64,000 bases of DNA from Phycisphaerae bacterium (GTDB lineage: Bacteria; Planctomycetota; Phycisphaerae; SM23-33): the NCBI GenBank assembly GCA_021108335.1, contig JAIORC010000188.1, forward strand, positions 10,240 through 74,239, written 5' to 3'. The translations under genes and the position numbers were made by a program. The notes below the pieces were generated by a model, which was given only the letters and a program-made list of their open reading frames with translations, had not been told where the DNA came from and ran no database searches. This document shows, one piece after another, positions 29,860-59,933 of the stretch (the first letter of the stretch is position 1; each line of letters opens with the position of its first letter).

Positions 29860-32826
29860 GTGCGCAAATCATTCATAATTATTTCATGTGTTTTGACGAT
29901 ACTTGTCGGGAGTGTGGCATCGCTGCAGGCCGCCGGTATCGGAGAAACTCAAGCGAAATATCTGTGCATCAGCAAAACGGCCCATCCGCCGGTAATTGAC
30001 GGGAAGCTTGGCAAAGACGAATGGGCCGGCTGCGCCAAAATTCCCGGTTTTGTGCTGAAAAGCGGTATCTGCCCCCCGACGCAACAGACGGAAGTCTTTA
30101 TCACCTATGACGACAAGACTTTTTACTTTGCCGCGCGTTGCCTCGAATCGAGCATGGATAAAATCAGAACCAGGGTAAAGGAGCACAACGGGGCGGTTTA
30201 TAATGACGATAACATCGAGTTGTTTATTGACACGAATTATGACCGATACAGCTATCGGCAGTTCGTCCTGAATTCCATCGCCGTGCAGTGGAGTGACGAG
30301 CTATCGAAAAAGGGAACATGGCCCGCGGCTGCCCAGAGACACGCCGACCGCTGGGTCGTGGAAATGGCCATCCCCTTCGCCCAGCTTGGAATCACGCCGG
30401 AAAAGGGGTTTGTCTGCGGGCTTAACATCTGTCGTATCCGCTGGGGCAAGAAGCCGGAGTTGAGCTGCTGGTCGCCGACGTACGGTGGGTTTCATTCGCC
30501 GGGACGTTTCGGCTGCATGGTCTTTGGTTCTTTTAAGGATGTAGCGGTCCGCGAGGCCGACAAGCTCAGGGCGCAGCTTGACAAGATTACAGCGAAAGAT
30601 TCCGGCAATGCGGCAATGCTTGTAGAGATTAAAAAGCTGGAGGAATCGGTTAAACCGGATGAAAAATTCGACGTTGATCGATTCCGTTCGCTCCGCAAAT
30701 CGGCCGAGGCCATTGGTGAAAAAATAGTAGACCTTGGGTTGTCGGACTTGCGCGCGAAATTGACCGGCGCCGGCACGGTGGAAACGCAGCATCTGACTTC
30801 TGCCGCCTCACGGGGCAATTACAAGTTCCCGGAAAACTGGCGGAGCCGGAAGATTCTGGGGCAATATGATTTCCTGCACGATCTTTCGAACCACAAAATG
30901 CCCCTTTTCAAAAAGGCTGGACTCGCGGATGAACCTTTTATCAAGGACGCGCTCATGGGGGTCTATGTCCTGCACAATAAGATGTTCAAGAAGAAATTCT
31001 TCGATCCCAAATCCCCTATCCGAAAAGAGCTGAAAAAAACCGGCAGGCCGTTTTGCATAAACGCCCTGGTTGGTAATGCCCGAATCAGCGACATTCCGCC
31101 TTCCCTGTGCCGGCGATTCATCAAGGAATACGGCGACCAGTTTGTCGGTTTTATCGCGGACGAATGCTTTGGCCATGACGCCGATAAAAAATGGAGACAT
31201 CTGGGGGTAAGCAAGCCGAAAAACCGGAAAGACGCATTTATGGTTTTTGTAGCCTGTGCGCTGGATCGGCACACAAGGATTTTCCGCAACTGGGCCTTGA
31301 GCCATAACGAATTCCGCAACTGGGCGATTTGCACGATTTCAGATCCGCTTGACCATTTAGCGCTCGAAACTCATAACCTCGTGATGTCCGGCCATGAAAT
31401 CGGCGGCTATATGATGAGTACGCCTTTTGCGTTTGCTTGTTCCCGTGGAGCGGCAAGGCAATACGATAAGCCGTGGAGGACGTACTTGGCGGTGTGGGGG
31501 CCGGGCGTTGTCTGGGGATCTGTAACGGGCTATCAGTTTTTGTCGCCGCGTTGTCGCAGGGCGTTTGCCCGGCCGACGTGGGATACTGGCCCGTATTGCG
31601 GCACGTCGCTTTCACTTCAGAAGCGGCAGATTTTTGGTGCTTACATGTCGGGCACAAACATATTTCGCGACGAAAGCGATGCCGATGTAGGTTCGATCTA
31701 TGTCGCCAATTACGACCATCGGAAAATTCATGAGGTCGACGATCTGGTGATAGTGTTGCGGGACCGACCCTATGCCCTTTCACCGGCTGGTTCAATCCGC
31801 CAGGAACTCCATGATAACCTTGTAAAAAAGCATGACCGCGGCGCAACATACACGCCGGTGGCACTGATCTTCGACCGCTATCATGGGTACATGAATACGG
31901 AGAATATCAGTTATATTCTGGGCATGATTCCATACGCCGAAGCGGATTACATGATGCGGGCGGTTAACGATACGCTGTTCCCGTGGGAGCGTCGCATGGG
32001 CGAACGGAAGACGATGGTTACCGGGCCGTTCGGCGACATGTTTGATATTTTGACCAACAATGCTCCCGGCGAAGTTATTGACACGTACAAAGCGGCGATG
32101 CTTGTCGGGGATGTCGCTCTGGACGGGCAGTTCGTAAGCAAACTCATCAAGTACGTCAGAAACGGCGGAACGTTGATTATTAACGCCAAACAGATCAAAG
32201 GCAAACTGCCGGAGAAGTTCCAGGAAATGCTCGGCTGCAAGGTAACGGAAAAACGAGGCCGGGGCAAAATCGCGTTCAGTAATCTCGATAATTCGGTGAT
32301 ACCGGAGAAAAAGCCCTTCAACTTCCAGTACCTCCAGCCGACAACCGCGACGACTCTCGTTTCCCTGGTCGAGGGCGACAAGAAAACCGCTCCGCTGGTA
32401 CTGTCGAACAAATACGGCAAGGGCCGCGTGATTGTTACCGCGCCGGATTATCTTAAGGAAACCGGCAGCAAAACGCGGATGCTGAAATTGTTCAGCCATC
32501 TCATGCGGAATCTGAATTCCGAACTGCTGCCGGTGGCGGTGGAAGGAAATGTAGAGTATATTGTCAATCGCAATAAGAACGGCTGGGTGGTAACGCTCAT
32601 CAATAACGAAGGCGCGTACAAATATCCCGGCAAAAAGGAAGTCATCAAATCCAAGGAAAATGTCGACGCAAAAATTACTCTGAAGCGTAACGCCCTGGTG
32701 GAAGTCTCGAAAGTAAGCGAGTGGCTCACAGGTAAAGAGCTGAAACTCGCCAAAACCCCGCAAGGGACAAAAGTAATCCTCACCGTCCCAGCCGGTGACG
32801 TGCGGATTATCGAATTCGCGCAATGA
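29860..32826 (+). CDS. Giant secreted protein, family A paralog 1: CBM9/DOMON-like N-module - coiled coil - unassigned hydrolase-like central domain - GH42-middle-like domain - C-terminal beta-sandwich
   Basis: GTG start at stop+2 of the previous gene; signal peptide; CBM9-like hallmark PPVIDGKLGKDEW...LFIDTNYD...WVVEMAIPF; GH42M-like YKAAMLVGDVALDGQFVSKLIKYVRNGGTLIINAKQ; conserved C-terminal EGNVEYIVNRNKNGWVVTLINNEG...VPAGDVRIIEFAQ. Confidence 0.6.
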   Translation: MRKSFIIISCVLTILVGSVASLQAAGIGETQAKYLCISKTAHPPVIDGKLGKDEWAGCAKIPGFVLKSGICPPTQQTEVFITYDDKTFYFAARCLESSMDKIRTRVKEHNGAVYNDDNIELFIDTNYDRYSYRQFVLNSIAVQWSDELSKKGTWPAAAQRHADRWVVEMAIPFAQLGITPEKGFVCGLNICRIRWGKKPELSCWSPTYGGFHSPGRFGCMVFGSFKDVAVREADKLRAQLDKITAKDSGNAAMLVEIKKLEESVKPDEKFDVDRFRSLRKSAEAIGEKIVDLGLSDLRAKLTGAGTVETQHLTSAASRGNYKFPENWRSRKILGQYDFLHDLSNHKMPLFKKAGLADEPFIKDALMGVYVLHNKMFKKKFFDPKSPIRKELKKTGRPFCINALVGNARISDIPPSLCRRFIKEYGDQFVGFIADECFGHDADKKWRHLGVSKPKNRKDAFMVFVACALDRHTRIFRNWALSHNEFRNWAICTISDPLDHLALETHNLVMSGHEIGGYMMSTPFAFACSRGAARQYDKPWRTYLAVWGPGVVWGSVTGYQFLSPRCRRAFARPTWDTGPYCGTSLSLQKRQIFGAYMSGTNIFRDESDADVGSIYVANYDHRKIHEVDDLVIVLRDRPYALSPAGSIRQELHDNLVKKHDRGATYTPVALIFDRYHGYMNTENISYILGMIPYAEADYMMRAVNDTLFPWERRMGERKTMVTGPFGDMFDILTNNAPGEVIDTYKAAMLVGDVALDGQFVSKLIKYVRNGGTLIINAKQIKGKLPEKFQEMLGCKVTEKRGRGKIAFSNLDNSVIPEKKPFNFQYLQPTTATTLVSLVEGDKKTAPLVLSNKYGKGRVIVTAPDYLKETGSKTRMLKLFSHLMRNLNSELLPVAVEGNVEYIVNRNKNGWVVTLINNEGAYKYPGKKEVIKSKENVDAKITLKRNALVEVSKVSEWLTGKELKLAKTPQGTKVILTVPAGDVRIIEFAQ

Positions 32827-32873
32827 CAGTCAGTTGATCTGGATTATCCTCCACAGGGCAGGAGGAATTCCAC

Positions 32874-35816
32874 ATGCTGGGAAAGGTAAATCACGTGCGA
32901 GCGAGCTTTATCAATATATTATGTTTCCTGTTGCTCCTGGGCGGGAGCGTCGGAATGTTACAAGCCGATGAATCCCGGAAGCCGGTATTGTGCGCGAGCA
33001 GGACAGCCACTCCGCCGGTAATAGACGGCAAAATGAGCAAGGGGGAATGGCCGAAGAAAGCCGCGGCATCGGGTTTCAAATATCAGGGGATCGGCGCGGA
33101 AGCCAGGGAACCGACCGCCGTATTCGTTACGTACGATGACAAAAACCTTTATTTCTGCTTCCGGTGCTCCGAATCGAATGTTGGGCAAATTGTAGCCAGA
33201 CTCAAAAAACATGGCTCGGCTGTTTGGAGAGACGATTTCGTATCGGTGAATATTGACGCAACTCTTGGCAAGGCCGGCTTTTCGCAGTTTCTCACAAATT
33301 CAATCGGTACTCGATACGGCGCGCGCGGGAAGTGGCGGGCAGCGGCAAAGGTGCATCGCGGTTTCTGGTGCGCGGAGATCGCCATTGCCTTTTCCGCTCT
33401 CAGAATACCAGCCGAAGACGGTAGAGTTTGCGGCCTGGAGCTGTATCGCGGAAAACAAGGCGGATACCGGGAAAAAAGCTATTGGGCACCGGCACATGGA
33501 GACCCCCGCGTTCCCACACGGTATGGATACATGGTGTTGGGCTCGCTGCAATCTGCTGCCGTACGCCGTGCCGGAGTGTTGGAAACACGTTTGGCGAAAG
33601 CAGCGGGAGAAAAGGCCCGAAAGGCAATTTTATTGCGGAAGATCAAAAAGCTGAAAACCTTGCCCTGCCGGACAAAAAAAGATTTCATGGCGATGCGTAC
33701 CGTCGCCGCTGCGATTGAAAAGCAGATTGTACGGCTCGAAGAATCAGCGATTTGTAAAAAGGTTGCGCCTGTCGCAACAACGGGGAAAATTTTTCTGACT
33801 TCCGATGCAGCACGGAGCGGTTACGAGCTGCCGGAAAACTGGCGGCTGCGGAAAATTCTGGGTAGGGATTTTTGGCATGACATTTCATCCCGCAGAATGT
33901 CCCTGTTCAGGCGGGCGGGTTTTGTGGACGAACCGTTCATAAAGGATTCGCTCCTGACGATTCCCACCAGGGGCAACGCGATGTTTGAGCGGGTCTTCCT
34001 TGATCCCAAGTCCAAAACCCGAAAAATGCTGAAAGAAACCGGCAGGGCGTTTTGCATACCGTCGCCCCACGGCAGCTATGCTATTTCGCGTTCTTCGCGC
34101 CGAAAGTTTTTGGATGAGTTTGGCGGGCAGTTTGTCGGCTTCATTGCGGACGAATGCTACGGCCACAATTGCAGGGCAAGATGGAAGCAAATGAAGTTGC
34201 CTATGCCCAAAACCCGGCATGAAGCGTTTATGGGATTTGCCGCCCTGTTTCTGGAACGCCGAAGGGGAATTTTCCGTAATTGGGCGCTTTGTTACGTGGA
34301 TTTGCGGCCTTGGACGATATGCACGTTTTCCAGTCCCATGGACCACTATGTCCTTGAACTCGGGCCGATAAAAATGTCCGGCGCGGAGATTGGCGGACAC
34401 CCGAAATCTACAGCGATGATGTTTGCGTTCTCGCGAGGCGCTGCCCGTCAGTACGACAAGCCGTGGCGAATTTACCTGGCTCTCTATGGGATGGGTGTTA
34501 TTTCGGATTCGACAAATGGCTATCGCGTTCTGTCGCCGCGGTGCCGCAACGCGACCCGCAGGAAAAGGTGGGACACCGGGCCGAATAGCGGCACTTCGCT
34601 GTCGCTGCAAAAGAGGCAGATACTGGCTGCGTATATGTCCGGGATGAACCTGTTCCACGACGAAGGCGACAGCGATTGCGGCTCAGTTTATGTAGCCAAT
34701 TACGATTACCGCACAATCGACAGTGTAGACGACCTTGTGATAGTATTGCGGGACAAGCCTTACTGCCTGTCGCCGGCTGGTGTAATCCGCAAGGAATTCT
34801 ACGACAATATCGTCAAGAAGCATGACCGCGGCGCGATATACACGCCGGTGGCGTTGGTGTTCGACCGCTATCACGGATACATGCCCAAGCATTACCCCAA
34901 CCACGTTCAGGGCGCGATTCCGTACAAAGAAGCGGACTACATGATGCGGGCGGTCAACGAAGCGTTGTTCCCATGGGAAAGTCGCATGGGCGAGCGGCAG
35001 GCGATGGTTACCGGGCCTTTCGGCGACATGTTCGACGTGTTGACCAACAACACTCCGAGCGAAGTGCTGAGTACTTACGGGGCGGCGATGCTTGTCGGCA
35101 ATGTCGAGTTGGACGGATATTTCGTGCAACGGCTCGTCAAGTACGTCGAGAACGGCGGAACGCTGATTGTCAACGCCAGGCAGATCAAAGGCAAGCTGTC
35201 GAAAAAATTCCAGAAAATTCTCGGCTGCAAGGTAACGAAAAAGCGAGGCCGCGGCAAAATAGCATTCAGCAATCTCGACAATTCAGTGATACTGGAAAAA
35301 AAGCCCTTCAACTTCCAATACCTCCAGCCGACAACCGCGACGACCCTCGTTTCCCTGATCGAGGGCGACAAGAAAACCGCTCCGCTGGTGTTGTCAAACA
35401 AATACGGCAAAGGCCGCGTGATAGTTACCTCGCCGGATTATCTTAAGGAGCCCGGCAGCAAGACGCAGATGCTGAGATTATTCAGCCATCTCATGCGGCG
35501 GCTCAATTCCGAATTGTTGCCGGTGGCGGTGGAAGGGAACGTCGAGTATATCGTCAACCGCAACAAGAACGGCTGGGTGGTAACGCTTATCAATAACGAC
35601 GGCGTGTACAAATATCCCGGACAAAAGCCAATCGTCAAATCCGAGAAAAACGTCGCCGCGAAGGTTACGCTGAAACGTAACGCCGCGGCAAAAGTCTCGA
35701 AAGTCAGTGAGTGGCTCACCGGCAAAGAATTAAAATTCGCCGAAACCCCGCAAGGCACGAAAGTAACCCTCACCGTCCCAGCCGGCAAGGTGCGGATTAT
35801 CGAATTCGAGTTATAA
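32874..35816 (+). CDS. Family A paralog 2 (CBM9-like - central domain - GH42M-like - beta-sandwich)
   Basis: Homologous to 29860-32826 throughout; RBS aggagg. Confidence 0.6.
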   Translation: MLGKVNHVRASFINILCFLLLLGGSVGMLQADESRKPVLCASRTATPPVIDGKMSKGEWPKKAAASGFKYQGIGAEAREPTAVFVTYDDKNLYFCFRCSESNVGQIVARLKKHGSAVWRDDFVSVNIDATLGKAGFSQFLTNSIGTRYGARGKWRAAAKVHRGFWCAEIAIAFSALRIPAEDGRVCGLELYRGKQGGYREKSYWAPAHGDPRVPTRYGYMVLGSLQSAAVRRAGVLETRLAKAAGEKARKAILLRKIKKLKTLPCRTKKDFMAMRTVAAAIEKQIVRLEESAICKKVAPVATTGKIFLTSDAARSGYELPENWRLRKILGRDFWHDISSRRMSLFRRAGFVDEPFIKDSLLTIPTRGNAMFERVFLDPKSKTRKMLKETGRAFCIPSPHGSYAISRSSRRKFLDEFGGQFVGFIADECYGHNCRARWKQMKLPMPKTRHEAFMGFAALFLERRRGIFRNWALCYVDLRPWTICTFSSPMDHYVLELGPIKMSGAEIGGHPKSTAMMFAFSRGAARQYDKPWRIYLALYGMGVISDSTNGYRVLSPRCRNATRRKRWDTGPNSGTSLSLQKRQILAAYMSGMNLFHDEGDSDCGSVYVANYDYRTIDSVDDLVIVLRDKPYCLSPAGVIRKEFYDNIVKKHDRGAIYTPVALVFDRYHGYMPKHYPNHVQGAIPYKEADYMMRAVNEALFPWESRMGERQAMVTGPFGDMFDVLTNNTPSEVLSTYGAAMLVGNVELDGYFVQRLVKYVENGGTLIVNARQIKGKLSKKFQKILGCKVTKKRGRGKIAFSNLDNSVILEKKPFNFQYLQPTTATTLVSLIEGDKKTAPLVLSNKYGKGRVIVTSPDYLKEPGSKTQMLRLFSHLMRRLNSELLPVAVEGNVEYIVNRNKNGWVVTLINNDGVYKYPGQKPIVKSEKNVAAKVTLKRNAAAKVSKVSEWLTGKELKFAETPQGTKVTLTVPAGKVRIIEFEL

Positions 35817-35961
35817 CAGGTAGTTGATCCAAATATTTTTGGGACAGGTATTTGCATTGTCGGCCAGGTTTGGATTGGCATTTATGTGGATTGAGTAACC
35901 GCTGATGCCCGGCTGTGGTAGAACTATGGTTGAATTGAATTAAGAGAAAGTGGAGTCGAGC

Positions 35962-38520
35962 ATGAAATTTTCAAAATCATGTGTGGTGTTGACGTTGGCT
36001 TTCGCGGCTGCGTGTGCGCAGGCGGATCCGAACGTAATTCTTGAGGATGATTTCTCGGGGACGAAGATCAATTCTGCCAAGTGGAAGCTCTACGTTCCGA
36101 AGGGGACAGGCGGTTTCATCAGAATTGAAGACGGCGTACTGCATGTTTTGTCATGTGACAGATCGGCATTTTTCACTACGAAAAAAGAGATTCCGTCAGG
36201 ACATATCCTGGAGTTCGACTACTTTCAGCCTTCGAAAGAGCGAAAGGGCAGCTACCAGAATCATGTGTTGTATAGTGCGACCAGAGACGCAAAGGGGCGG
36301 AAGTGTCGCAACACCGTGTGGTACGTTGAGCAATCCGGGTGTTTGTTCAGTCATCACAACGGCCTGCGAGACAAGCGGGGAGCGATTGGGAATTTTCCTC
36401 CATCGCGTGATAAGTGGTATCGGGTTCGAGTATTGAACCAGGCCCGGAGCACTACGATTATTGTACGCGACCGGAAGACCGGCAAGCTTTGCAGCCGGGC
36501 CACTTTTTCCCACGATCCGGTGTCGTCGGGTCGAATACAGTTTGTTGGGGGGGCATACAACAAAGGCAGCCGCCTGGGCTTCAAGCTCGACAATGTGCGA
36601 ATTCTCAGCAAAACGCCCGTTCTCGGCAAAGCCCCGACGCCGCTGGTACCGCCGGGAAATTTCGAGACGCCGGCGAACTGGAAGCCGCTCGATATCGCAG
36701 GAAGGAATTTCTGGCATTTGGCTTACTATAAGCCCCATGCGTGGAAGCTTTGGGGAATGAGCAAGCATCCGCTGTTTGCCGAAGCGGCGTGGCTGCACGC
36801 TCCGACCGACGAAAAAGCGATCAGCGCCACGCCTCGGCCTTTTACGATGAGGCCGGCAAGAACGAAGGCCGGTCGCGAGCGGCAGGTGAAAATTGTAAAG
36901 GCCGCCGGAGATAAGTTCCTCGGATTTTATCCGCCGATGAATGAGTGGGGCGATGTCTACCTTCGCCGCGGCCGGCTTGGCAAAGCGACCAGCCGCGATG
37001 ACGGACTTGCACGAATTAAGCGGATGTATATCAAACGTGCGGATACGGCGCCGGTCAAACGCGCGACCTTTTCGCTTATGAATTACCGGCTTTTCCATCA
37101 TCACGCCCTCGAGTGGGGATCACGCTCGGTGACAGCCGAAATCGGCGAAACCGTTCCGTGTACCAACCTTCAGATTGCATGTACGCGCGGTGCGGCGCGC
37201 GAGTACGGCCGCCCGTGGGGCATCGATCTTTCCTCGTGGCTTTACGGAAAGATGACCCATTACGTGTACACGCCTGACTTCATATCCAGCCCGTGCTCGT
37301 TGTACAGCGGTCATTCCGTATCGCTCCACAAAAGATTCTGCTACGCCTCCTGGCTGGCTGGCGCTAACTATATCTGGTACGAGAACGAAGCTGTGCTGGC
37401 GATGAATGAAAACGACATCCGCCAGGTGATCGGTTGCCAGCCGGACAAGAAATACGATCGCTGGGTGCTCTCGCCGGTTGGCGAGATAGCGCAGAAGCTC
37501 TTTGCTCTCGCGAAAATCAAAGATCGCGGAACCCCTTACACGCCGGTGGCGTTGATGATCGATTTCGCCCATGGCTGGTCGCCGCTGGGCTGTACGCCGC
37601 ACAAGATATGGGCCAATCTGCCGCTGGCCAAGGGCGACCACATGCTCGACGAGTTCTTCAATACGATTTACCCGTGGAACCCGGCCCGCGACTATAGCGA
37701 GCCTGGCGCGCGCAAGCCAGGCAGGAACGGCGAGCAGGGCTTCCTGACGCCAACTCCCTATGGCGATATCTTCGACGTGTTCACGAACAAGTCATGCCGC
37801 ACCCTGGCTGGCTATCGCGTATTGATGATGGTGGGCGACGTGCGGATCGACAAGGCCCTGGCGGCAAAACTTATAGCATACGTCAAAAATGGCGGCACAC
37901 TCGTTATCAACGCGAAGCAGCTCGGGGCGCATTTGCCGGCGAAGTTCCTCGGCGCTAAGCTGACGGGGCAAAGCGGCACGGCGAAGTCGGCTTTGTGCAA
38001 GCTCGACGGCAAAAAGCTTGCCGGGGCGGCATTCAGCTACGCCAAGGTGGAATTGACAACCGCCAAGCCGCTCGTTACAGCCGATGGCGGCAAAGACGCG
38101 CTGGCTTGCATTAACGAGGTCGGCAAGGGCAGAGTAGTTCTCACGACACCGCCTTATCTTCTCAACAAGAAGAATCGTGCGGTGCCCATGTTGAAGCACC
38201 TGTTGAAACATCTCACCAGCGGCCTGCTGCCGGTTCGCGTCAGCGAAGGCGACGGCCTGGAGTATACGGTCAACCGCACCGCCAAGGGCTGGGTTGTGGG
38301 GCTTATTAACAATAAGGGTATTTACAAGCAGCCGACCGGCCCGCCGACAATCAGGCCCGAAGAGGAAATAGCAGTAATGGTGCGTCTGGATGGTGTGGCG
38401 ACGAAGGCTACCGAATGGATCACCGGCAAGAAGCTGAAAATGAAAACCACGAAAAAAAGTACAACCGTCAGGCTGGTCGTCCCAGCCGGCGACGTACGAA
38501 TTATTGAATTGGAGAAATAA
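35962..38520 (+). CDS. Family B paralog 1: ConA/LamG-like N-module fused to the same central domain - GH42M-like - beta-sandwich core
   Basis: Signal peptide. N-module ILEDDFSGTKINSAKWKLYVP... is a jelly-roll lectin/glucanase-like fold. The central RGAAREYGRPWGIDLS and SGHSVSLHKRFCYASWLAGANYIWYE align with family A RGAARQYDKPWRTYLA and CGTSLSLQKRQIFGAYMSGTNIFRDE. C-terminus ...VPAGDVRIIELEK. Confidence 0.6.
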   Translation: MKFSKSCVVLTLAFAAACAQADPNVILEDDFSGTKINSAKWKLYVPKGTGGFIRIEDGVLHVLSCDRSAFFTTKKEIPSGHILEFDYFQPSKERKGSYQNHVLYSATRDAKGRKCRNTVWYVEQSGCLFSHHNGLRDKRGAIGNFPPSRDKWYRVRVLNQARSTTIIVRDRKTGKLCSRATFSHDPVSSGRIQFVGGAYNKGSRLGFKLDNVRILSKTPVLGKAPTPLVPPGNFETPANWKPLDIAGRNFWHLAYYKPHAWKLWGMSKHPLFAEAAWLHAPTDEKAISATPRPFTMRPARTKAGRERQVKIVKAAGDKFLGFYPPMNEWGDVYLRRGRLGKATSRDDGLARIKRMYIKRADTAPVKRATFSLMNYRLFHHHALEWGSRSVTAEIGETVPCTNLQIACTRGAAREYGRPWGIDLSSWLYGKMTHYVYTPDFISSPCSLYSGHSVSLHKRFCYASWLAGANYIWYENEAVLAMNENDIRQVIGCQPDKKYDRWVLSPVGEIAQKLFALAKIKDRGTPYTPVALMIDFAHGWSPLGCTPHKIWANLPLAKGDHMLDEFFNTIYPWNPARDYSEPGARKPGRNGEQGFLTPTPYGDIFDVFTNKSCRTLAGYRVLMMVGDVRIDKALAAKLIAYVKNGGTLVINAKQLGAHLPAKFLGAKLTGQSGTAKSALCKLDGKKLAGAAFSYAKVELTTAKPLVTADGGKDALACINEVGKGRVVLTTPPYLLNKKNRAVPMLKHLLKHLTSGLLPVRVSEGDGLEYTVNRTAKGWVVGLINNKGIYKQPTGPPTIRPEEEIAVMVRLDGVATKATEWITGKKLKMKTTKKSTTVRLVVPAGDVRIIELEK

Positions 38521-38521
38521 C

Positions 38522-41080: not shown

Positions 41081-41082
41081 TA

Positions 41083-41243
41083 CCGGGCGCACAAAATTAG
41101 TGCGATCGCGAGTAAAATGTCTAATGACTAAAAAAACACGCTGGGTGGCATGGCGACACCGCAGGGGTCGCCATGAGGGATGGCGTAGGAATTGCGTGGT
41201 GGCCTTGTTACCTCGTCTGGCGCACTAACTTTGTGCGCCCGGT
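41083..41243. repeat. MITE-like element: REP-like hairpin flanked by 23-bp inverted repeats
   Basis: accgggcgcacaaaattagtgcg at 41083-41105 versus cgcactaactttgtgcgcccggt at 41221-41243 (22/23 complementary). Inside lies gggtggcatggcgacaccgcaggggtcgccatga (41144-41177), identical to the copy at 13135-13170. Confidence 0.5.
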
Positions 41244-41323
41244 ATAATAGCATGCGGCAGAGTAGACACGCTGCCGACAGGAAAGGGCAAATTGTTTTGT
41301 GCATCCTAAAAAAGGTGAATTTA

Positions 41324-44263: not shown

Positions 44264-44311
44264 CAATCAGTTGATCTGGATATCCTTCCAGGGCAGGAGG
44301 AATTCAACACA

Positions 44312-48652: not shown

Positions 48653-48775
48653 AGGAAATTTCGAGTATATAGTCAACCGCAATAAGAGCGGCTGGGTGGT
48701 AACGATCGTCAACAACGAAGACGCGCTACCGGTTGAAAAGGACAAACTTTTTTACACAAACGAAAAGAGGAAAAT
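48653..48775 (+). pseudogene. Relic of the 3' end of a family A paralog (gene fragment, about 40 codons)
   Basis: Immediately after the GH2 stop the sequence translates EGNFEYIVNRNKSGWVVTIVNNEDALPVEKDKLFYTNEKRKI*. This matches the conserved C-terminal EGNVEYIVNRNKNGWVVTLINNEG of family A but lacks everything upstream. Confidence 0.6.
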
Positions 48776-48778
48776 CTA

Positions 48779-51751
48779 ATGCATGGAAAAGTATTAATTT
48801 TGACAGGTTTTATGATGTTTTTTGTTGGCGGTTCGGCTGCTGCTGCTCAGAAGGACTCTCAAGCGAAATATCTGTGCCTGAGCAAAACAGCTCGCCCGCC
48901 GGTAATTGACGGGAAACTTGGCAAAGACGAATGGGCCGGCAGCGCCAAAATTTCTGGCTTTGTGCTGAAAAGTGGTATCTGCCCCCCGAAACAACAGGCG
49001 GAGGTTTTTGTAACTTATGACGACAAAAACCTTTATATTGCCGCGCGTTACGCCGAATCTCAACCGGACAAAATCAAAGCCAATATAACACGGCACAACG
49101 GCCCGGTTTATGAAGACGATGACATTGAAATATTTATCGACACGAATTTCGACCGGAGCAGTTGTCACCAGTTTGTTACCAATCCCATCGGTACGCAGTG
49201 GGACAGCCTTGCAATGAAAAAGGGCGCGTGGTCTACAGCGTCGCAGGTGTATGCGGACTGCTGGATTACGGAGATAGCCATACCTTTTACCGTGCTCAAA
49301 ATAACGCCGGAGAAGGGGCTTGTCTGCGGGCTTAACGTCTGTCGTATGCGAAGGAGCAAGATTCCGGAGTTGAGCTGCTGGTCGCCGACGTACGGTTCTT
49401 TCCATGCGCCGGGGCGTTGCGGCTACCTGGTGTTCGGTTCTCTCAAGGACGTAGCGGCTCGCAAAGCCGGCAAGCTCAGAGCGAAACTCGCAAAGGTTAC
49501 AGGAAAAAAGAGCGCGAAAGACGCGTTGCTTAAGGAAATCGGAGAACTTGAGACGTCGGCGGGGAAAGCAGGGAGTTTTGAGGCTCGTTTCCGCAAGCTC
49601 GTCAAATCGGAAGCTGCGATAGGCGAGAAAATAACGGCGTTGAAACTATCGCCCCTGTGTGCGAAATTGATCTCCGAAAACCAGATATCCGTAAACAAGA
49701 TAAAATATCTGATTTCCTCACGTCTGACTTCCCCTGCTGCGATGAACGGTTACAAGTTCCCGGAAAACTGGCGGCTGCGGAAGACGAAGGGCAGGGATTA
49801 CTGGCATGATCTTTCATATCGCAAAATGCCCCTTTATAAGAAGGCCGGCATTGCCGATGAGCCGTTTATCAAAGACTCGCTCCTCGGGCTTTACTTTTGG
49901 AGTAACGATCAGTTCAAGAGAATGTTCTTTGACCCCAAATCCCCGACCCGGAAATTATTGAAAAAGACCGGCAGGGCGTTTTGCATACAGGCCAACGCAG
50001 GCCGGAAATATCCCTATGACATTCCACCCTCCCTGTGCCGCAGATTCCTCAAGGAATTCGGCGGGCAATTCGTTGGTTTCACCGGAGATGAATGTTACGG
50101 CCACGAGTGCGCGAAAAAATGGCCGCGTATGAAATTAAGCATGCCGAAAACCCGGCACGAATCGTTTCTGGGCTTTCTGGCTTGTTTCCAGGATCGACGC
50201 AGGCCGATGTTCCACAACTGGGCTTTGTGCATCGACGAGTTCCGTCCCTGGACAATTTGTACAAATGCGGCAAGGCTTGACCATTATGTTCACGATGCGG
50301 GAACGGTGCTGATGTCCGGCCATGAAATCGGCGGGCATCAGGTATGTAATCCGATGGCGTTTGCATTTTCGCGTGGGGCGGGGCGGCAATACGATAAGCC
50401 GTGGCGAACGTATCTGGCGGTCTGGAGCACGGGCATTGTGTGGGATTCCACCAACGGTTACGACGTACTGTCGCCGGAGTGCCGCAACTCGTTTGGCAGA
50501 GCCAATTGGGACAGAGGCCCTTACAGCGGCACGTCGCTTTCGCTGCAGTGGAGAGAAATTGCCAGCGCGCTTATGTCCGGCACGAACATGTTCCGCGACG
50601 AAGGCGACGCCGATTGCGGCTCGCTCTATGTAGCCAATTACGACTATCGCACGATTAATACCGTGGACAACCTCGTAAAAGTCCTGCGAGACAAGCCGTA
50701 CTGCATATCGCCGGCTGGCGCAATCCGCAGAGACCTCTATAACATTATCATCAAGAGGAATGATCGCGGCGCGACATACGCGCCGGTGGCCTTGGTTTTC
50801 GACCGTTATCACGGCTTTATTCTGGGGCATTATCTCAATTCCGTTCTTGGCGTGTTTCCGTACACCGAGGCGGATTACATGATGCGGGCAGTCAATCAGA
50901 CGCTGTTCCCGTGGGAGCATCGTGCGGGCGAGCACCGGGCGACGGCGACAGGCCCGTTCGGCGACATGTTCGACGTTTTGACCAACAATGCTTCTGGCGA
51001 AGTGTTCGACACTTACGGGGCAGCGATGCTTGTCGGGAATGTCGAGATGGACGGGAATTTTGTGAAAAAGCTCGTCAACTACGTCAAAAACGGCGGAACG
51101 CTGATTGTCAACGCCAAACAGATCAACGGCAACCTGTCGGAAAGGCTCCAGAAATTCCTCGGCTGCAAGGTAACGGAAAAGCGAGGCCGGGGCAAAATGG
51201 CGTTCAGCAATCTCGACAATTCAATGATACTGGAAAAAAAGCCCTTCAACTTCCAGTACCTTGAACCGACAACCGCGACGCCGCTCGTTTCCCTGATCAA
51301 GGGAGACAAGAAAACCGCTCCGCTGGTACTGTCGAACAAATACGGCAAGGGCAGGGTGATTGTTACCGCGCCGGATTATCTTAAGGTACCCGGCAGCAAA
51401 ATGCGGATGCTGAAATTGTTCAGCCATCTCATGCGACAGCTCAACTCCGAGCTGCTGCCGGTGAAGGTGGAGGGGAACGTTGAGTATATCGTCAACCGCA
51501 ACAAGAACGGCTGGGTGGTAACGCTTATCAATAACGAGGGCGTGTACAAATATCCCGGCAAAGAGGAAATTATCAAATCCGCGGAAAACGTCGACGCAAA
51601 GGTTACCCTTAAGCGTAACGCTGCGGCGAAGGTTTCGAAAGTCAATGAATGGTTTACTGGCAAAGAGCTGAAACACGCCGAAACCCCGCAGGGCACGGAA
51701 GTAACCCTCACCGTCCCAGCCGGCGACGTTCGGATCGTCGAATTTGAATGA
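48779..51751 (+). CDS. Family A paralog 4
   Basis: Signal peptide, CBM9-like PPVIDGKLGKDEW, conserved core, and a C-terminus ending VRIVEFE. Confidence 0.6.
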   Translation: MHGKVLILTGFMMFFVGGSAAAAQKDSQAKYLCLSKTARPPVIDGKLGKDEWAGSAKISGFVLKSGICPPKQQAEVFVTYDDKNLYIAARYAESQPDKIKANITRHNGPVYEDDDIEIFIDTNFDRSSCHQFVTNPIGTQWDSLAMKKGAWSTASQVYADCWITEIAIPFTVLKITPEKGLVCGLNVCRMRRSKIPELSCWSPTYGSFHAPGRCGYLVFGSLKDVAARKAGKLRAKLAKVTGKKSAKDALLKEIGELETSAGKAGSFEARFRKLVKSEAAIGEKITALKLSPLCAKLISENQISVNKIKYLISSRLTSPAAMNGYKFPENWRLRKTKGRDYWHDLSYRKMPLYKKAGIADEPFIKDSLLGLYFWSNDQFKRMFFDPKSPTRKLLKKTGRAFCIQANAGRKYPYDIPPSLCRRFLKEFGGQFVGFTGDECYGHECAKKWPRMKLSMPKTRHESFLGFLACFQDRRRPMFHNWALCIDEFRPWTICTNAARLDHYVHDAGTVLMSGHEIGGHQVCNPMAFAFSRGAGRQYDKPWRTYLAVWSTGIVWDSTNGYDVLSPECRNSFGRANWDRGPYSGTSLSLQWREIASALMSGTNMFRDEGDADCGSLYVANYDYRTINTVDNLVKVLRDKPYCISPAGAIRRDLYNIIIKRNDRGATYAPVALVFDRYHGFILGHYLNSVLGVFPYTEADYMMRAVNQTLFPWEHRAGEHRATATGPFGDMFDVLTNNASGEVFDTYGAAMLVGNVEMDGNFVKKLVNYVKNGGTLIVNAKQINGNLSERLQKFLGCKVTEKRGRGKMAFSNLDNSMILEKKPFNFQYLEPTTATPLVSLIKGDKKTAPLVLSNKYGKGRVIVTAPDYLKVPGSKMRMLKLFSHLMRQLNSELLPVKVEGNVEYIVNRNKNGWVVTLINNEGVYKYPGKEEIIKSAENVDAKVTLKRNAAAKVSKVNEWFTGKELKHAETPQGTEVTLTVPAGDVRIVEFE

Positions 51752-51833
51752 CAGTGAAGCGCTTACGAAAATTACGAGATTGAACAAGGCAACGCCCAAA
51801 GCCCTGCACCTTGCGAAGCAAGGAGAGTAGAAA

Positions 51834-53621
51834 ATGCGAATTCATAATTGGTTGTGTTTTCTTTTGATAGTAGCGTGGATGTTCTGCGCTGGCGTATCTT
51901 GGGCGCAGTCGCCTCGTCCCAAATATACTTGTTATAAGATCCCCAAAGGGGCCGTCAAAATCGATGGTGTCCTGGACGAAAAGTGCTGGTCGCGGACTCC
52001 GTGGCTGGACTTGCGGAACACGAAAACCGGCAAACGCATTGCCTATCCGTCGAAAGTGCGAATGTTGTGGGATGACAAATATCTCTACGCGGGCTATGAC
52101 GTAGGCTATGTGGATGTGTTCGGCAAGGAGACGAAAAGAGACACGCCTTTCTATAAAAAAAAAGAAATGTTCGTAAAGCTTTTTCTGGACCCTGACGCAA
52201 ACGGCACGGATGTTTTTGAAATCCATGTTTCGCCGCGGAATTGCGTGTACGATGTCCGACAGGCTATCCCGAACCATAATCAAAATCCCCCTGGCACAGT
52301 AGCCGCCAAGTGGAACTGCAAGGGGCTTCTCAGTGCGGTTCGTATTAACGGAACCCTGAATAATTCAGCTGATGTGGATCGAGGATATACCGTGGAGCTG
52401 GCTATTCCGTGGGCGTCGATACGCAAATTCACGATTGGCAAGTGCCCTCCCTCGCCGGGGGACCGTTGGGCTGTAAGTCCGCAATGTCGGTATTTTCTGC
52501 AACCGTCGAAGAATGGAATATGCCGCGGCAAAGCGTATTATGCCAGTTGGCCGAAACTCGGTATTATTGATTCACATGTTTATGACAGGTATGGACATAT
52601 GATTTTTTCATCACAAAGCCCCAGAATGCTCGAATGGAAACTAGCCTGGATATGGACCCTGCCGTCGAAAACCGACGCGCAGATCGAAGACGCCGTCGTC
52701 AAGGCCAAAGCAATGGGCTTCAATGCGATAGCGTGGAATGCCAGGTGGAAACCGTTCATTCACGCGTGCAGAAAACATGGCATGCAAGCATATGCCGTTA
52801 TCTCCCCAGATTACGGGAAAGCCTGGGGAACCACAAAGCACGAACAGGTAATGCTTCCTGGAGAGGAGAAATTACCCTCCAGTCGCAAAGATAATCCAAC
52901 TTATCAGGAAGGCGGCGAGCCGCTTGGAGGAGCTATAGGAACAGAAATCCGCCGAGCCACTTTGCCTTGTTTCAGGCATCCGCATGTCCTTGAACAATTC
53001 CGCAAAAAAATTCGCCAAAGCGTGGATCGAGGCTATTCGGGAATTGCCTTCGATTGGATTGGTTACAAGAATCTTCACGGGTGTTACTGTGAACACTGCA
53101 AGCGGCTTGCCCGTAAGGCGGCCCCGCCCGGAATGTCTCCGCAGGAGGCAGACCGCCGGTTTCAAGAGGAAACGCTCACGCAATTCTACAAGAACATATG
53201 CGATTACGCCAAATCCTACGCTAAATCCCTGAACAGGACCGTCAAAACCACATGCCATGTCTACCCGGCCTTTTTACCGAACAATCTCTATGGTAACAAG
53301 CTGCCGGTGGACTATTGCGGCCAGACGGTTTCGTGGTTTTTCAAGCCTCATTGGAAATTCGAGAAAATCGAACGCTACACGCGGTACGTCGTGGAGAATG
53401 ACTCTTTGTACCACCGGCACAGTGTAGGTGCGCCTTTTATCGCTTTCTACGGCAAGGGAACCTTCGCTGTCGATGTCAAGTCGGCTGGGCGTGTTAGAAA
53501 AGAGATTCAAATTATCAAGAAATGCGGTGCAAGGGCTATCCAGTTTGCCGAACTGGGGAATATTCTGGCAGTCCCTGCTGTCGCCAAGGTTGTCACAGAA
53601 GAGCTTAATGACCAAGAATAA
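51834..53621 (+). CDS. Secreted CBM9-like N-module fused to a putative TIM-barrel glycosidase-like domain containing a Cys cluster
   Basis: Signal peptide; CBM9-like VKIDGVLDEKCW...LFLDPDANGTDVFEIHV...YTVELAIPWASI; C-terminal ~330 aa with GFNAIAWNARWKPF...GYSGIAFDWIGYKNLHGCYCEHCKRLA. Confidence 0.45.
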   Translation: MRIHNWLCFLLIVAWMFCAGVSWAQSPRPKYTCYKIPKGAVKIDGVLDEKCWSRTPWLDLRNTKTGKRIAYPSKVRMLWDDKYLYAGYDVGYVDVFGKETKRDTPFYKKKEMFVKLFLDPDANGTDVFEIHVSPRNCVYDVRQAIPNHNQNPPGTVAAKWNCKGLLSAVRINGTLNNSADVDRGYTVELAIPWASIRKFTIGKCPPSPGDRWAVSPQCRYFLQPSKNGICRGKAYYASWPKLGIIDSHVYDRYGHMIFSSQSPRMLEWKLAWIWTLPSKTDAQIEDAVVKAKAMGFNAIAWNARWKPFIHACRKHGMQAYAVISPDYGKAWGTTKHEQVMLPGEEKLPSSRKDNPTYQEGGEPLGGAIGTEIRRATLPCFRHPHVLEQFRKKIRQSVDRGYSGIAFDWIGYKNLHGCYCEHCKRLARKAAPPGMSPQEADRRFQEETLTQFYKNICDYAKSYAKSLNRTVKTTCHVYPAFLPNNLYGNKLPVDYCGQTVSWFFKPHWKFEKIERYTRYVVENDSLYHRHSVGAPFIAFYGKGTFAVDVKSAGRVRKEIQIIKKCGARAIQFAELGNILAVPAVAKVVTEELNDQE

Positions 53622-53631
53622 GGAAAATATT

Positions 53632-56595
53632 ATGCATGGAAAAGTATTAATTTTGGCAGGTTTTATGGCGATGTGTTTCGTTGGCGGTTCGGTTATTGCT
53701 GCCGGGAAGGACTCTCAAGAGAAATATCTGTGCATCAGCAAAACCGCTCGCCCGCCGGTAATTAACGGAAAGCTTGGTAAGGACGAATGGGCCGGCAGCG
53801 CCAAAATCTCCGGCTTTGTGCTGAAGGGCGGAATCGGTGCCCCGACGCAACAGACGGAAGTCTTTATCACTTATGACGACAAGACTTTTTACTTTGCCGC
53901 GCGTTGCCTCGAATCGAGCATGGATAAAATCAGAACCAGGGTAAAGGAGCACAACGGGGCGGTTTATAATGACGATAACATCGAGTTGTTTATCGATACG
54001 AATTATGATCGATACAGCTATCGGCAGTTTGTCCTGAATTCCATCGCCACGCAGTGGAGCGATGATATATCGAAAAAGGGAGCATGGTCCGCGGCTGCGA
54101 AGGAGCGCGATGACTGCTGGGTCGTGGAAATGGCCATACCCTTCACCCAGCTTGGCATGACGCCGGAAAAGGGGCTTGTCTGCGGGCTGAACATCTGTCG
54201 TATCCGATGGGGCAACAGGAAGCCGGAGCTGAGTTGCTGGTCGCCGACGTACGGTGGGTTTCATTCGCCGGGACATTTCGGCTGCATGGTCTTTGGTTCT
54301 TTCCAAGAAGTAGCAGCCCGTGAGGCCGGCAAACTCAGGGCGCGGCTTGACAAGATTACGGCGAAAGATTCTGACAAGGCCCCAGTGCTTGCAGAGATTA
54401 AAAAGCTGGAGGATTCGGTCAAGCCGGACGAAAAATTCGACGTAGACCGATATCGGGCGCTCCGCAAATCGGCCGAGGCCATTGGTGAAAAAATAGTAGA
54501 CCTTGGGTTGTCGGACTTGCGCGCGAAATTGACCGGCGCCGGCACGGTGGAAACGCAGCATCTGACTTCTGCCGCCTCACGGGGCAATTACAAGTTCCCG
54601 GAAAACTGGCGGAGCCGGAAGATTCTGGGGCAATATGAATTCCTGCACGATCTCTCGAATCACAAAAAGTCCCTTTACAAAAAAGCCGGGCTTGCGGATG
54701 AGCCTTTTATCAAGGACGCTCTTATGGGGGTTTACGTCCTGCACAATAAGATGTTCAAGAAGAAATTCTTCGACCCCAAATCCCCTATCCGAAAAGAGCT
54801 GAAAAAAACCGGCAGACCGTTCTGCATAAACGCCCTGGTCGGTAATAAGCGTATCAGCGACATTCCGCCTTCCCTGTGCCGCCGATTCATCAAGGAATAC
54901 GGCGACCAGTTTGTCGGTTTTATCGCGGACGAAAGCTTTGGCCATAACGCCCATAAAAAATGGAAGCATCTGGGGGTAAGCAAGCCGAAAAACCGGAAAG
55001 ACGCGTTTATGGTTTTTGTAGCCTGTGCGTTGGATCGGCACACGAAGATTTTCCGCAACTGGGCCTTGGGCCATACTGAATTCCGCAACTGGTCGGTTTG
55101 CACGTTTTCGGATCCGCTGGACCATTTAGCGCTTGAAACCCATAACCTCGTGATGTCCGGCCATGAAATCGGTGGATTTGTGCCGTGTACGCCTTTGTTG
55201 TTTGCTTTTTCCCGTGGTGCGGCAAGGCAATACGATAAGCCGTGGAGGACGTACCTGGCGGTTTGGGGGCCGGGCGTGGTTTGGGGTTCTGTAAAGGGCT
55301 ACAATGTATTGTCGCCCCGATGTCGCACACCGTTTCATCGGCCAACGTGGGAGAGAGGCCCGTACTGCGGCACGTCGCTTTCGCTTCAGAAGCGACAAAT
55401 TCTTGCGGCCTACATGTCGGGCACAAACATATTCCGCGATGAAAGCGATGCCGATTGCGGTTCGCTCTATGTCGCCCATTACGACCATCGCACCATTGAT
55501 ACCGTTGACGACCTCGTGCTGGTATTGCGGGACCAACCCTACGCCCTTTCGCCGGCCGGTGAGATTCGCAAGGAGCTCCACGACAATATCGTCAAGAAGC
55601 ATGATCGCGGCGCGGCCTACACGCCGGTGGCGCTGGTCTTCGATCGATATCACGGGTATATGTCCACACACTATCGCGACCAGATACAAGGCCTGATCCC
55701 ATACACCGAAGCGGATTACATGATGCGGGCGGTCAACGATACGCTGTTCCCGTGGGATCATCGCACGGGCGAGCGGAAGACGATGGTAACCGGGCCTTTC
55801 GGCGACATGTTCGACGTTCTGACAAACAACACTCCCGGCGAAGTGCTTGACACGTATAAAGCGGCGATGCTTGTTGGGGATGTCGCTCTGGACGGGAGCT
55901 TTGTGAACAAGCTCGTCAAGTACGTCAAAAACGGCGGAACGTTGATTATTAACGCCAAACAGATCAAAGGCAAGCTGCCGAAAAAATTCCAGGAAATGCT
56001 CGGCTGCAAGGTAACAGAAAAACGCGGCAAGGGAATCACGGTGTTCAGCAAACTGGATAATTCGGTGATACCGGAGAAAAAATCCTTCAACTTCCAATAC
56101 CTTGAGCCGACAACCGCGACACCGCTCGTTTTCCTGGTCGAAGGTGACAAAAAAACCGTGCCGCTGGTGTTGTCGAACAAATACGGCAAGGGCAGAGCGA
56201 TCGTTACCGCGCCGGATTATCTTAAGGAATCCGGCAGCAAGACGCGGATGCTGAAATTGTTCAGCCATCTCATGCGGCATCTCAACTCCGAACTGCTGCC
56301 GGTGAAGGTGGAAGGAAATGTTGAATATATCGTCAACCGCAACAAGAACGGCTGGGTGGTAACGCTCATCAACAACGAGGGCGTGTACAAATATCCCGGC
56401 AAAAAAGAAATCGTCAAATCCGAGGAAAACGTCATCGCGAAAGTTACTCTGAAGCGTAATGCCGCCGCGAAAGTCTCGAAAGTAGGCGAGTGGCTCACAG
56501 GCAAAAAGCTGAAATCCGCCGACACCCCACAGGGGACGAAAGTAACTATTACCGTTCCGGCTGGCGACGTGCGGATTATAGAATTCGAGCAATAA
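53632..56595 (+). CDS. Family A paralog 5
   Basis: True start MHGKVLILAGFMAMCFVGGSV, in frame with the 53428 ORF. About 85% identical to paralog 1 in the CBM9-like region. Confidence 0.6.
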   Translation: MHGKVLILAGFMAMCFVGGSVIAAGKDSQEKYLCISKTARPPVINGKLGKDEWAGSAKISGFVLKGGIGAPTQQTEVFITYDDKTFYFAARCLESSMDKIRTRVKEHNGAVYNDDNIELFIDTNYDRYSYRQFVLNSIATQWSDDISKKGAWSAAAKERDDCWVVEMAIPFTQLGMTPEKGLVCGLNICRIRWGNRKPELSCWSPTYGGFHSPGHFGCMVFGSFQEVAAREAGKLRARLDKITAKDSDKAPVLAEIKKLEDSVKPDEKFDVDRYRALRKSAEAIGEKIVDLGLSDLRAKLTGAGTVETQHLTSAASRGNYKFPENWRSRKILGQYEFLHDLSNHKKSLYKKAGLADEPFIKDALMGVYVLHNKMFKKKFFDPKSPIRKELKKTGRPFCINALVGNKRISDIPPSLCRRFIKEYGDQFVGFIADESFGHNAHKKWKHLGVSKPKNRKDAFMVFVACALDRHTKIFRNWALGHTEFRNWSVCTFSDPLDHLALETHNLVMSGHEIGGFVPCTPLLFAFSRGAARQYDKPWRTYLAVWGPGVVWGSVKGYNVLSPRCRTPFHRPTWERGPYCGTSLSLQKRQILAAYMSGTNIFRDESDADCGSLYVAHYDHRTIDTVDDLVLVLRDQPYALSPAGEIRKELHDNIVKKHDRGAAYTPVALVFDRYHGYMSTHYRDQIQGLIPYTEADYMMRAVNDTLFPWDHRTGERKTMVTGPFGDMFDVLTNNTPGEVLDTYKAAMLVGDVALDGSFVNKLVKYVKNGGTLIINAKQIKGKLPKKFQEMLGCKVTEKRGKGITVFSKLDNSVIPEKKSFNFQYLEPTTATPLVFLVEGDKKTVPLVLSNKYGKGRAIVTAPDYLKESGSKTRMLKLFSHLMRHLNSELLPVKVEGNVEYIVNRNKNGWVVTLINNEGVYKYPGKKEIVKSEENVIAKVTLKRNAAAKVSKVGEWLTGKKLKSADTPQGTKVTITVPAGDVRIIEFEQ

Positions 56596-59895: not shown

Positions 59896-59933
59896 CCAGT
59901 GCCGTGCTTCTGCAAGCAGAAGCACGGCACTGG
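59896..59933. terminator. Perfect 18-bp-stem REP-like hairpin between convergent genes, candidate bidirectional terminator
   Basis: ccagtgccgtgcttctgc-aa-gcagaagcacggcactgg followed by gcatttttt on the + strand. Same family as the 13094-13119 hairpin. Confidence 0.5.

Follow-up and report, generated by a model that had tools for sequence, protein, structure and literature searches.

Glycoside hydrolase (GH) family 42 groups clan GH-A beta-galactosidases and alpha-L-arabinopyranosidases, cytoplasmic in their classical members, in which a (beta/alpha)8 barrel is followed by a middle ("trimerisation", GH42M) domain and a C-terminal beta-sandwich, and in which the two catalytic glutamates stand 157-171 residues apart (PDB 5E9A being one example). 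A tri-domain layout of this kind recurs in the GH164 beta-mannosidase Bs164 (PDB 6t5o) and in GH35-type enzymes, namely the archaeal exo-beta-D-glucosaminidase GlmA and a beta-1,2-glucosyltransferase (5gsl, 6jow, 8oug and 7vkw). For GH164, the clan GH-A catalytic glutamates (E160/E297) have been assigned to strands 4 and 7, and an arginine to the early strands (PMC7105311). Here we analyze an array of seven genes at positions 29860-56595 of a 64,000-nucleotide stretch of a Phycisphaerae metagenome-assembled genome (MAG; contig JAIORC010000188.1), hereafter the window, which a first, sequence-only reading had singled out as secreted paralogs with an unassigned hydrolase-like core. We conclude that the products of these genes are probably glycoside hydrolases, secreted or periplasmic, that form part of a large and so far undescribed family. 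This family would share its ancestry and architecture with GH42 and GH164, with a barrel so diverged that sequence comparison no longer recognises it.

All seven paralogs (Table 1) are encoded on the + strand by open reading frames (ORFs) without internal stops, corresponding to proteins of 856-990 aa. This agrees with the seven same-strand ORFs proposed earlier, except that the starts given at 35962 and 38522 are the fifth and the seventh codon of ORFs beginning at 35950 and 38504, respectively. In a seven-way alignment, the C-terminal ~650-680 aa could be aligned across all copies, as had been claimed, and the conserved blocks quoted at the time were all recovered (RGAARQYDKPWR, SGHEIGG, CGTSLSLQKRQI...YMSGTN, NGGTLIINAKQ and EGNVEYIVNRNKNGWVVTLINNEG). 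The array is however composed of two groups: paralogs 1, 2, 5, 6 and 7 share 60-85% identity, while paralogs 3 and 4 are 63% identical to each other and 29-33% identical to the other five. Outside this genome, even the nearest relatives do not exceed 44% full-length identity to the five and 49% to the pair, so both groups expanded within the lineage. What had been described as a seven-fold lineage-specific expansion is thus a 5+2 array drawn from two subfamilies rather than a single burst, and the family as a whole is widespread, with at least 1054 sequence clusters.

The N-termini of all seven proteins look, by eye, like Sec signal peptides, with basic residues, a hydrophobic stretch, and a small-x-small site. 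In paralog 1, the signal peptide is followed by a CBM9-like module, a helical linker, the barrel, the GH42M-like domain, and the beta-sandwich. The carbohydrate-binding module (CBM) was detected with the Pfam model CBM9_1 (PF06452, gathering cut-off 23.4 bits) in paralogs 1, 5, 6 and 7 (34.2, 57.2, 37.7 and 37.9 bits, respectively; E 2.6e-15 for paralog 5), and below the cut-off in paralog 2 (19.3 bits). Paralogs 3 and 4 gave no CBM9_1 match in the Pfam scan, and sub-threshold Laminin_G_3 matches (E 0.0079 in paralog 3) point to a concanavalin-A-like module instead, so that five paralogs are predicted to carry a CBM9-like module and two a concanavalin-A-like one.

We then turned to the shared ~680-aa core, for which an AlphaFold2 monomer model of residues 310-988 of paralog 1 was obtained with a mean pLDDT of 94.7 and a pTM of 0.95. 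The model consists of a (beta/alpha)8 barrel (residues ~326-660), an alpha/beta domain (~661-890), and an all-beta domain (891-988). Rather than a non-enzymatic fold, the model displays a glycosidase-type barrel with three invariant glutamates at or near the ends of strands. Resemblance of the middle domain to that of GH42, originally noticed by eye, was borne out in profile searches: it matches GH42, GH164 and GH35-type PDB chains (best E 4.5e-5), and an hhalign comparison between a 169-sequence family profile and a 49-sequence GH42 profile reached 97.9% probability, with all confidence located in the two C-terminal domains. The same domain remains below the cut-off of Glyco_hydro_42M (PF08532; 13.7-23.5 vs 25.8 bits), and PF22369 is also sub-threshold. 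The terminal beta-sandwich that had been proposed is all-beta in the model and aligned with its GH42 counterpart. As modelled, the core therefore combines a barrel, a GH42M middle domain and a C-terminal beta-sandwich, i.e., the architecture of GH42 and GH164.

The barrel behaved differently in sequence comparisons, and the earlier statement that the central domain is unmatched held against Pfam, NCBIfam, and PDB sequences. Pfam returned zero matches for this domain in the seven paralogs or ten distant relatives (E ≤ 0.1-1), including nothing at E ≤ 0.1 for the GH42 barrel model PF02449, and the GH98 models PF08306 and PF08307 were likewise without match. No NCBIfam model matched the barrel, and PDB chains were not matched by either a single-sequence phmmer search or an hmmsearch with the family profile. 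When the barrel alone was aligned with hhalign to one GH42 sequence or to the 49-sequence GH42 profile, in global and local mode, the probability was 0.1-0.4%. A mapping of the catalytic residues onto GH42 through the profile alignment was also attempted and then discarded as evidence, because the barrel stretch of that alignment carries zero confidence.

Residue conservation was evaluated in alignments of 69 and 169 family members (positions are given in paralog 1 numbering). Few barrel positions are near-invariant, namely Glu435, His499, Glu513, the motif Arg529-Gly-Ala-x-Arg-Gln534, Tyr542 (88%), and Glu605, to which the middle domain adds the invariant Arg660, Asp729, and Tyr743. The active sites of TIM barrels sit at the C-terminal ends of the strands, which is where the model places Glu435 and Glu605, with Glu513 near such an end. 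Glu435 and Glu605 are 170 residues apart, as in GH42, and the strand bearing Glu435 is followed by a helical insertion that resembles one described after strand 4 in GH42 and GH164. The residue preceding Glu435 is Asn in paralogs 3 and 4 (PMNEW), Asp in the five CBM9 paralogs (ADEC), and G, D, H or N across the family, hence the Asn-Glu signature of clan GH-A is not conserved. The absence of an NE..E pattern reported in the sequence-only reading thus applies to the five CBM9 paralogs, which have D-E, but not to paralogs 3 and 4, which have N-E, and a second invariant glutamate does follow at the GH42-like distance.

Assigning these residues to strands depends on how the barrel is counted. The models contain nine beta-alpha units, one of which, strand 358-362 of the core (TPVALIFD), was attributed to the middle domain because it vanishes when the barrel is modelled alone. 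One possible numbering of the modelled strands places Glu435 on strand 4, Tyr542 on strand 6, and Glu605 on strand 7, which is the clan GH-A pattern, while another possible numbering places Glu435, Glu513, and Glu605 on strands 4, 6, and 8. By analogy with GH42 and GH164, we favour Glu435 and Glu605 as the catalytic pair, with Glu513 as an alternative partner of Glu435.

Compared to GH42 (PDB 3tts, 4oif, 5xb7 and 1kwk), the family thus shows the same order of three domains and two homologous C-terminal domains, whereas its barrel is unrecognisable by sequence (no PF02449 match, hhalign 0.4%) and without the conserved Asn-Glu. It also adds a third invariant glutamate and an invariant RGAARQ motif, which lies on a helix of the model and not on the face where catalysis usually occurs, its first three strands are without conserved residues, and the array proteins bear signal peptides and N-terminal CBM9 or concanavalin-A-like modules, unlike the cytoplasmic classical members. 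Bs164 shares the architecture at 8-12% identity. The GH35-type chains were retrieved by Foldseek at E values of 1e-15 to 1e-18 and the Pfam model GLMA_2nd matched the middle domain below threshold, but the barrel had no sequence match to them, with an identity of 8-11%. GH98, which comprises inverting endo-beta-galactosidases and an endo-xylanase, is similarly distant (2wmi, 2wmh, 9h6h and 7pmo; 8-11% identity), and differs by its lack of a GH42M domain and by its carboxylate spacing. Overall, the array represents a candidate new GH family inside the GH42-like architectural group, and not a categorically new system.

Next, we evaluated the extent of the family. When 1.84 billion cluster representatives were searched with a family profile, we obtained 1054 clusters at E ≤ 1e-30, a lower bound for clusters at 50% identity, as well as 2005 at E ≤ 1e-10 and 3328 at E ≤ 1e-3, these weaker matches including proteins that share just the middle domain. 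Members derive nearly all from MAGs. In a scan of species-representative genomes that was motif-seeded with the seven paralogs, and is thus biased to sequences keeping WVVxLINN and AxRQYxxPW, members were found in Verrucomicrobiota, Lentisphaeria, Victivallaceae, Kiritimatiellae, Planctomycetota, many Pyrinomonadaceae (Acidobacteriota), and Armatimonadota, with Oligoflexus tunisiensis as the single cultured isolate among the matches. The domains fused to the core in these relatives include CBM9, LamG, F5/8-type-C, NPCBM, PA14, Ig-like, and type IX secretion system (T9SS) sorting domains. At least five family loci were found in the Verrucomicrobiota MAG SRP192927_co3_754 (L035, L037, L057, L059 and L072), and three of the matches span 3.7-4.2 kb; these may be adjacent copies, in which case expansion would not be unique to the Phycisphaerae MAG.

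The surroundings of members in other genomes from the Planctomycetota-Verrucomicrobiota-Chlamydiota (PVC) group support the involvement of the family in glycan breakdown in these bacteria. A GH31 gene directly precedes the family member at one locus (L006), the same as in the window, while other members lie near GH130, a 1104-aa GH42-type protein, and a beta-helix protein (L001), near a 1162-aa GH42-type protein, GH172, GH43, and GH78 (L005), near ROK, GFO/IDH, and AraC genes (L004), or near AraC and LacI regulators (L002). In Oligoflexus tunisiensis Shr3 (L042 3591-7581), the member directly follows a PMT_2 (GT-C glycosyltransferase) gene, and in a Pyrinomonadaceae genome (L085 4404-8010) it follows a chlorite-dismutase-like gene and lies near cytochrome b. 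Since these neighbours are not carbohydrate-active enzymes (CAZymes), the role of the family is possibly not uniform. As a separate observation, the unusually long GH42-Pfam proteins (1100-1220 aa, at least 49 clusters) adjoin members at L001 6012-9326 (Kiritimatiellae) and at L005 3612-7100 (another metagenomic contig), and may form a recurrent gene pair with them; in the one sequence inspected, the presumed acid/base site reads LGDEN where NE would be usual.

The domains of the array proteins have followed distinct evolutionary paths. Among the five CBM9 paralogs, protein identity is 62-74% in the barrel for most pairs (86% for paralogs 1 and 7) vs 78-88% in the two C-terminal domains, and the corresponding values for paralogs 3 and 4 are 60% and 80-86%. 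Nucleotide identity rises in every pair from 60-70% to 85-92% across the last ~250 codons, four-fold degenerate sites are ~50% identical in the barrel vs 73-87% in the middle domain, and dS is uniform at 0.37-0.55 in the 3' third vs 0.8-1.9 or saturation in the barrel. This combination of low dS and high degenerate-site identity indicates that the 3' thirds were homogenised by gene conversion or recombination, independently in the group of five and in the pair. Paralogs 1 and 7, for which dS is 0.25-0.43 throughout, are a recent whole-gene duplicate. Where dS could be estimated, several pairs being saturated, dN/dS was 0.17-0.25 in every domain, which places all copies under purifying selection, and the barrels diverged under it. 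The striking conservation of the C-terminal blocks accordingly reflects largely concerted evolution, and not an additional functional constraint.

Further traces of recombination were found around the GH2-family gene that interrupts the array. A ~85-nt relic of paralog beta-sandwich sequence, 85% identical and non-coding, extends across and beyond its stop codon and would read EGNFEYIVNRNKSGWVVTIVNNE; it probably marks either an eighth copy that has since disappeared or the recombination event by which the GH2 gene entered the array. The upstream and signal-peptide DNA of paralog 2 (32854-32974) and of the GH2 gene (44289-44409) are also 85% identical (MLGKVNHVRASFINIL... vs MGKVNHVRASFINIL...), which indicates that 5' ends were exchanged by recombination between unrelated enzymes.

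Taken together, the most likely function of these proteins is the hydrolysis of glycosidic bonds in a complex polysaccharide. We propose that the N-terminal CBM9-like or concanavalin-A-like module would dock the enzyme on the polysaccharide, and that the glycosidic bond would be cut at the C-terminal face of the barrel through acid/base catalysis. Glu435, directly after the fourth listed strand, would act as proton donor and Glu605, by virtue of its GH42-like spacing, most likely as nucleophile or base, while Glu513 would be a third carboxylate that is essential and could serve as catalytic partner instead. Trimerisation is probably mediated by the GH42M domain, which, given its invariant Arg660, Asp729, and Tyr743, would also help shape the site. 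The array may then work as a toolkit, in which diverged barrels presumably address different linkages of one complex glycan; the GH31, GH2, and CBM-bearing proteins, presumably co-transcribed, would act on the same glycan, its products would be imported by the adjacent ABC (ATP-binding cassette) system, and gene conversion would keep the 3' thirds alike.

Several observations weigh against assigning the array to a new family of glycoside hydrolases. No method that we applied linked the barrel by sequence to any GH family, and TIM barrels also house many non-glycosidase activities. The hallmark Asn of clan GH-A ahead of the acid/base Glu varies (G/D/H/N), and the three N-terminal strands are without an invariant residue, which is unusual for this clan. 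In addition, database names of members are either "hypothetical protein" or refer to the CBM ("sugar-binding protein", for example), and the members from Acidobacteriota and Oligoflexus lie outside CAZyme clusters. The status of new CAZy family is also that of a candidate, as the comparisons covered Pfam, NCBIfam, and the PDB but not dbCAN/CAZy, and GH160, GH165, GH167, and GH173 were not compared by sequence. The proteins could thus belong to an existing CAZy family without a Pfam or NCBIfam model or a solved structure, for instance a recent small GH family. CAZy founds families faster than Pfam models them, and GH42-related groups have recently been split off (GH164, GH165, GH167, and the "GHX" clades); we regard this explanation as unlikely. 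Full-text literature searches found neither a description of such proteins nor an applicable characterised member or matching new GH family.

Other explanations appear less plausible still. Highly divergent true GH42 members, i.e., beta-galactosidases or alpha-L-arabinopyranosidases that escape the Pfam model, would account for the shared domain order, the two homologous C-terminal domains, and the candidate catalytic spacing (170 aa vs 157-171 in GH42), and a low-stringency, non-significant hhalign path even sets FIADE opposite the LGDE of a GH42 protein; given the differences from GH42 described above, we hold this to be improbable. The least probable reading is that the barrel is not a hydrolase but a transglycosylase, a phosphorylase, an enzyme modifying envelope or exopolysaccharides, or a non-catalytic binding scaffold. 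The presence of the GH35-type beta-1,2-glucosyltransferase 7vkw among the structural neighbours, the PMT_2 gene next to the Oligoflexus member, the position of the Pyrinomonadaceae member outside sugar-catabolic clusters, and the location of the invariant RGAARQ off the usual catalytic face would all fit such a role. However, the three invariant glutamates, located at or close to the ends of strands, speak against pure binding, the genes of the window and of other PVC genomes have catabolic GHs, a sugar importer, and LacI/GntR/AraC regulators as neighbours, and signal peptides together with CBMs fit extracellular depolymerisation. Beyond the assignment to an undescribed GH family that we prefer, a more far-reaching and distinctly speculative version can be formulated, in which a new family of more than 1000 clusters departs from clan GH-A by a Glu triad on alternate strands (4/6/8), the absence of Asn-Glu, and unconserved strands 1-3, and in which gene conversion within tandem arrays keeps the oligomerisation domains interchangeable, allowing paralogs that differ in their barrels to form mixed (hetero)trimers and thus a combinatorial, multi-specific glycosidase.

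At least 1000 clusters of this family carry just a "hypothetical" label, in PVC bacteria (Phycisphaerae, Kiritimatiellae, Lentisphaerae, and Verrucomicrobiota) and in soil Acidobacteriota, uncultured lineages which are regarded as major degraders of complex, recalcitrant glycans. Once an activity is assigned, a new CAZy family could be named and the carbon-cycling annotation of many metagenomes would improve, and enzymes might become available for polysaccharides without known depolymerases. The array also provides a clear natural case of domain-wise evolution, with diverging catalytic barrels and homogenised oligomerisation domains, and makes the formation of mixed oligomers by GH42-type enzymes directly testable.

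Table 1 Features of the seven-paralog array and its surroundings (window coordinates; residues in paralog 1 numbering, "core" in numbering of the modelled core).
Feature	Position	Strand	Remarks
Paralog 1	29860..32826	+	988 aa; MCD4824578.1, "hypothetical protein"
Paralog 2	32874..35816	+	980 aa, CBM9 type; CBM9 score under Pfam cut-off
Paralog 3	35950..38520	+	856 aa; predicted concanavalin-A-like N-terminal module; PMNEWGD at invariant Glu
Paralog 4	38504..41080	+	858 aa; sister of paralog 3, 63% identity
Paralog 5	41324..44263	+	979 aa, CBM9 type; ORF open from 41192
Paralog 6	48779..51751	+	990 aa, CBM9 type
Paralog 7	53632..56595	+	987 aa, CBM9 type; ORF open from 53428; 84% identical to paralog 1
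CBM9-like module, paralog 1 (residues 46-191)	29995..30432	+	PF06452, 34.2 bits, E 3.1e-8
Putative catalytic (beta/alpha)8 barrel, paralog 1 (~residues 326-660)	30835..31839	+	
GH42-type middle ("trimerisation") domain, paralog 1 (~residues 661-890)	31840..32529	+	first strand TPVALIFD
C-terminal beta-sandwich, paralog 1 (residues 891-988)	32530..32823	+	all-beta in model; aligns with GH42 C-terminal domain
Glu435 codon (core E126)	31162..31164	+	69/69 sequences; directly after strand core 119-125; proposed general acid (acid/base)
Glu513 codon (core E204), in SGHEIGG	31396..31398	+	167/169; near C-terminal end of strand core 198-206
Glu605 codon (core E296), in FRDESD	31672..31674	+	168/169; directly after strand core 292-295; proposed nucleophile/base
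Concerted 3' ends (last ~750 nt), five CBM9 paralogs	32040-32823, 35030-35813, 43480-44260, 50970-51748, 55810-56592		
Concerted 3' ends (last ~750 nt), paralogs 3 and 4	37730-38517, 40285-41058		
Relic of paralog beta-sandwich sequence	48639..48722	+	~85 nt, 85% identical; non-coding, across and after GH2 stop codon
GH31	26647-28737	+	
CBM4_9 protein	28734-29858	+	
GH2-family enzyme with C-terminal CBM9	44312..48652	+	1446 aa, interrupts array
CBM9 + ~330-aa C-terminal domain	51834..53621	+	595 aa, interrupts array
Terminator-like hairpin (strong)	59896..59933	+	17-bp stem, 11 G-C pairs, T tail
S9 alpha/beta hydrolase	25060-26355	-	
Sugar-type ABC importer: binding protein	23423-24874	-	
Sugar-type ABC importer: two permeases	21927-23426, 21020-21934	-	
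VIT-domain protein	17663-20977		1104 aa
Heparinase II/III-like protein	7570-9657		
Prepilin-type N-methyl/DUF1559 protein	6818-7528		typical of Planctomycetota
Secreted LamG-like protein	5861-6673		

The gene neighbourhood in the window corresponds to the one outlined in the sequence-only reading, i.e., GH31, CBM4_9, GH2 with CBM9, an S9 alpha/beta hydrolase, and a sugar-type ABC importer. A LacI regulator and the heparinase II/III-like protein lie further upstream. The GH31 and CBM4_9 genes (26647..29858) head a run of + strand genes that is uninterrupted from 26647 to 59841. A consensus scan gave many weaker terminator-like matches inside the run (33 and 21), which were not above shuffled sequence and of which none was comparable to the hairpin at 59896-59933. 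The closing of this 33-kb run by that hairpin suggests, at the level of sequence, a single very long transcription unit. The 595-aa protein encoded within the array was considered as a truncated paralog and rejected, as hhalign showed no relation to the paralog family, and it gave no Pfam or PDB match beyond CBM9; its ~330-aa C-terminal domain, which contains HGCYCEHC, may represent a further unassigned enzyme domain. Downstream of paralog 7, two adjacent genes co-oriented with the array (56743-57927 and 57932-59125) encode ~395-aa proteins without Pfam match, which are distantly paralogous (24% identity, E 7e-12) and internally repetitive, with a propeller-like pattern.

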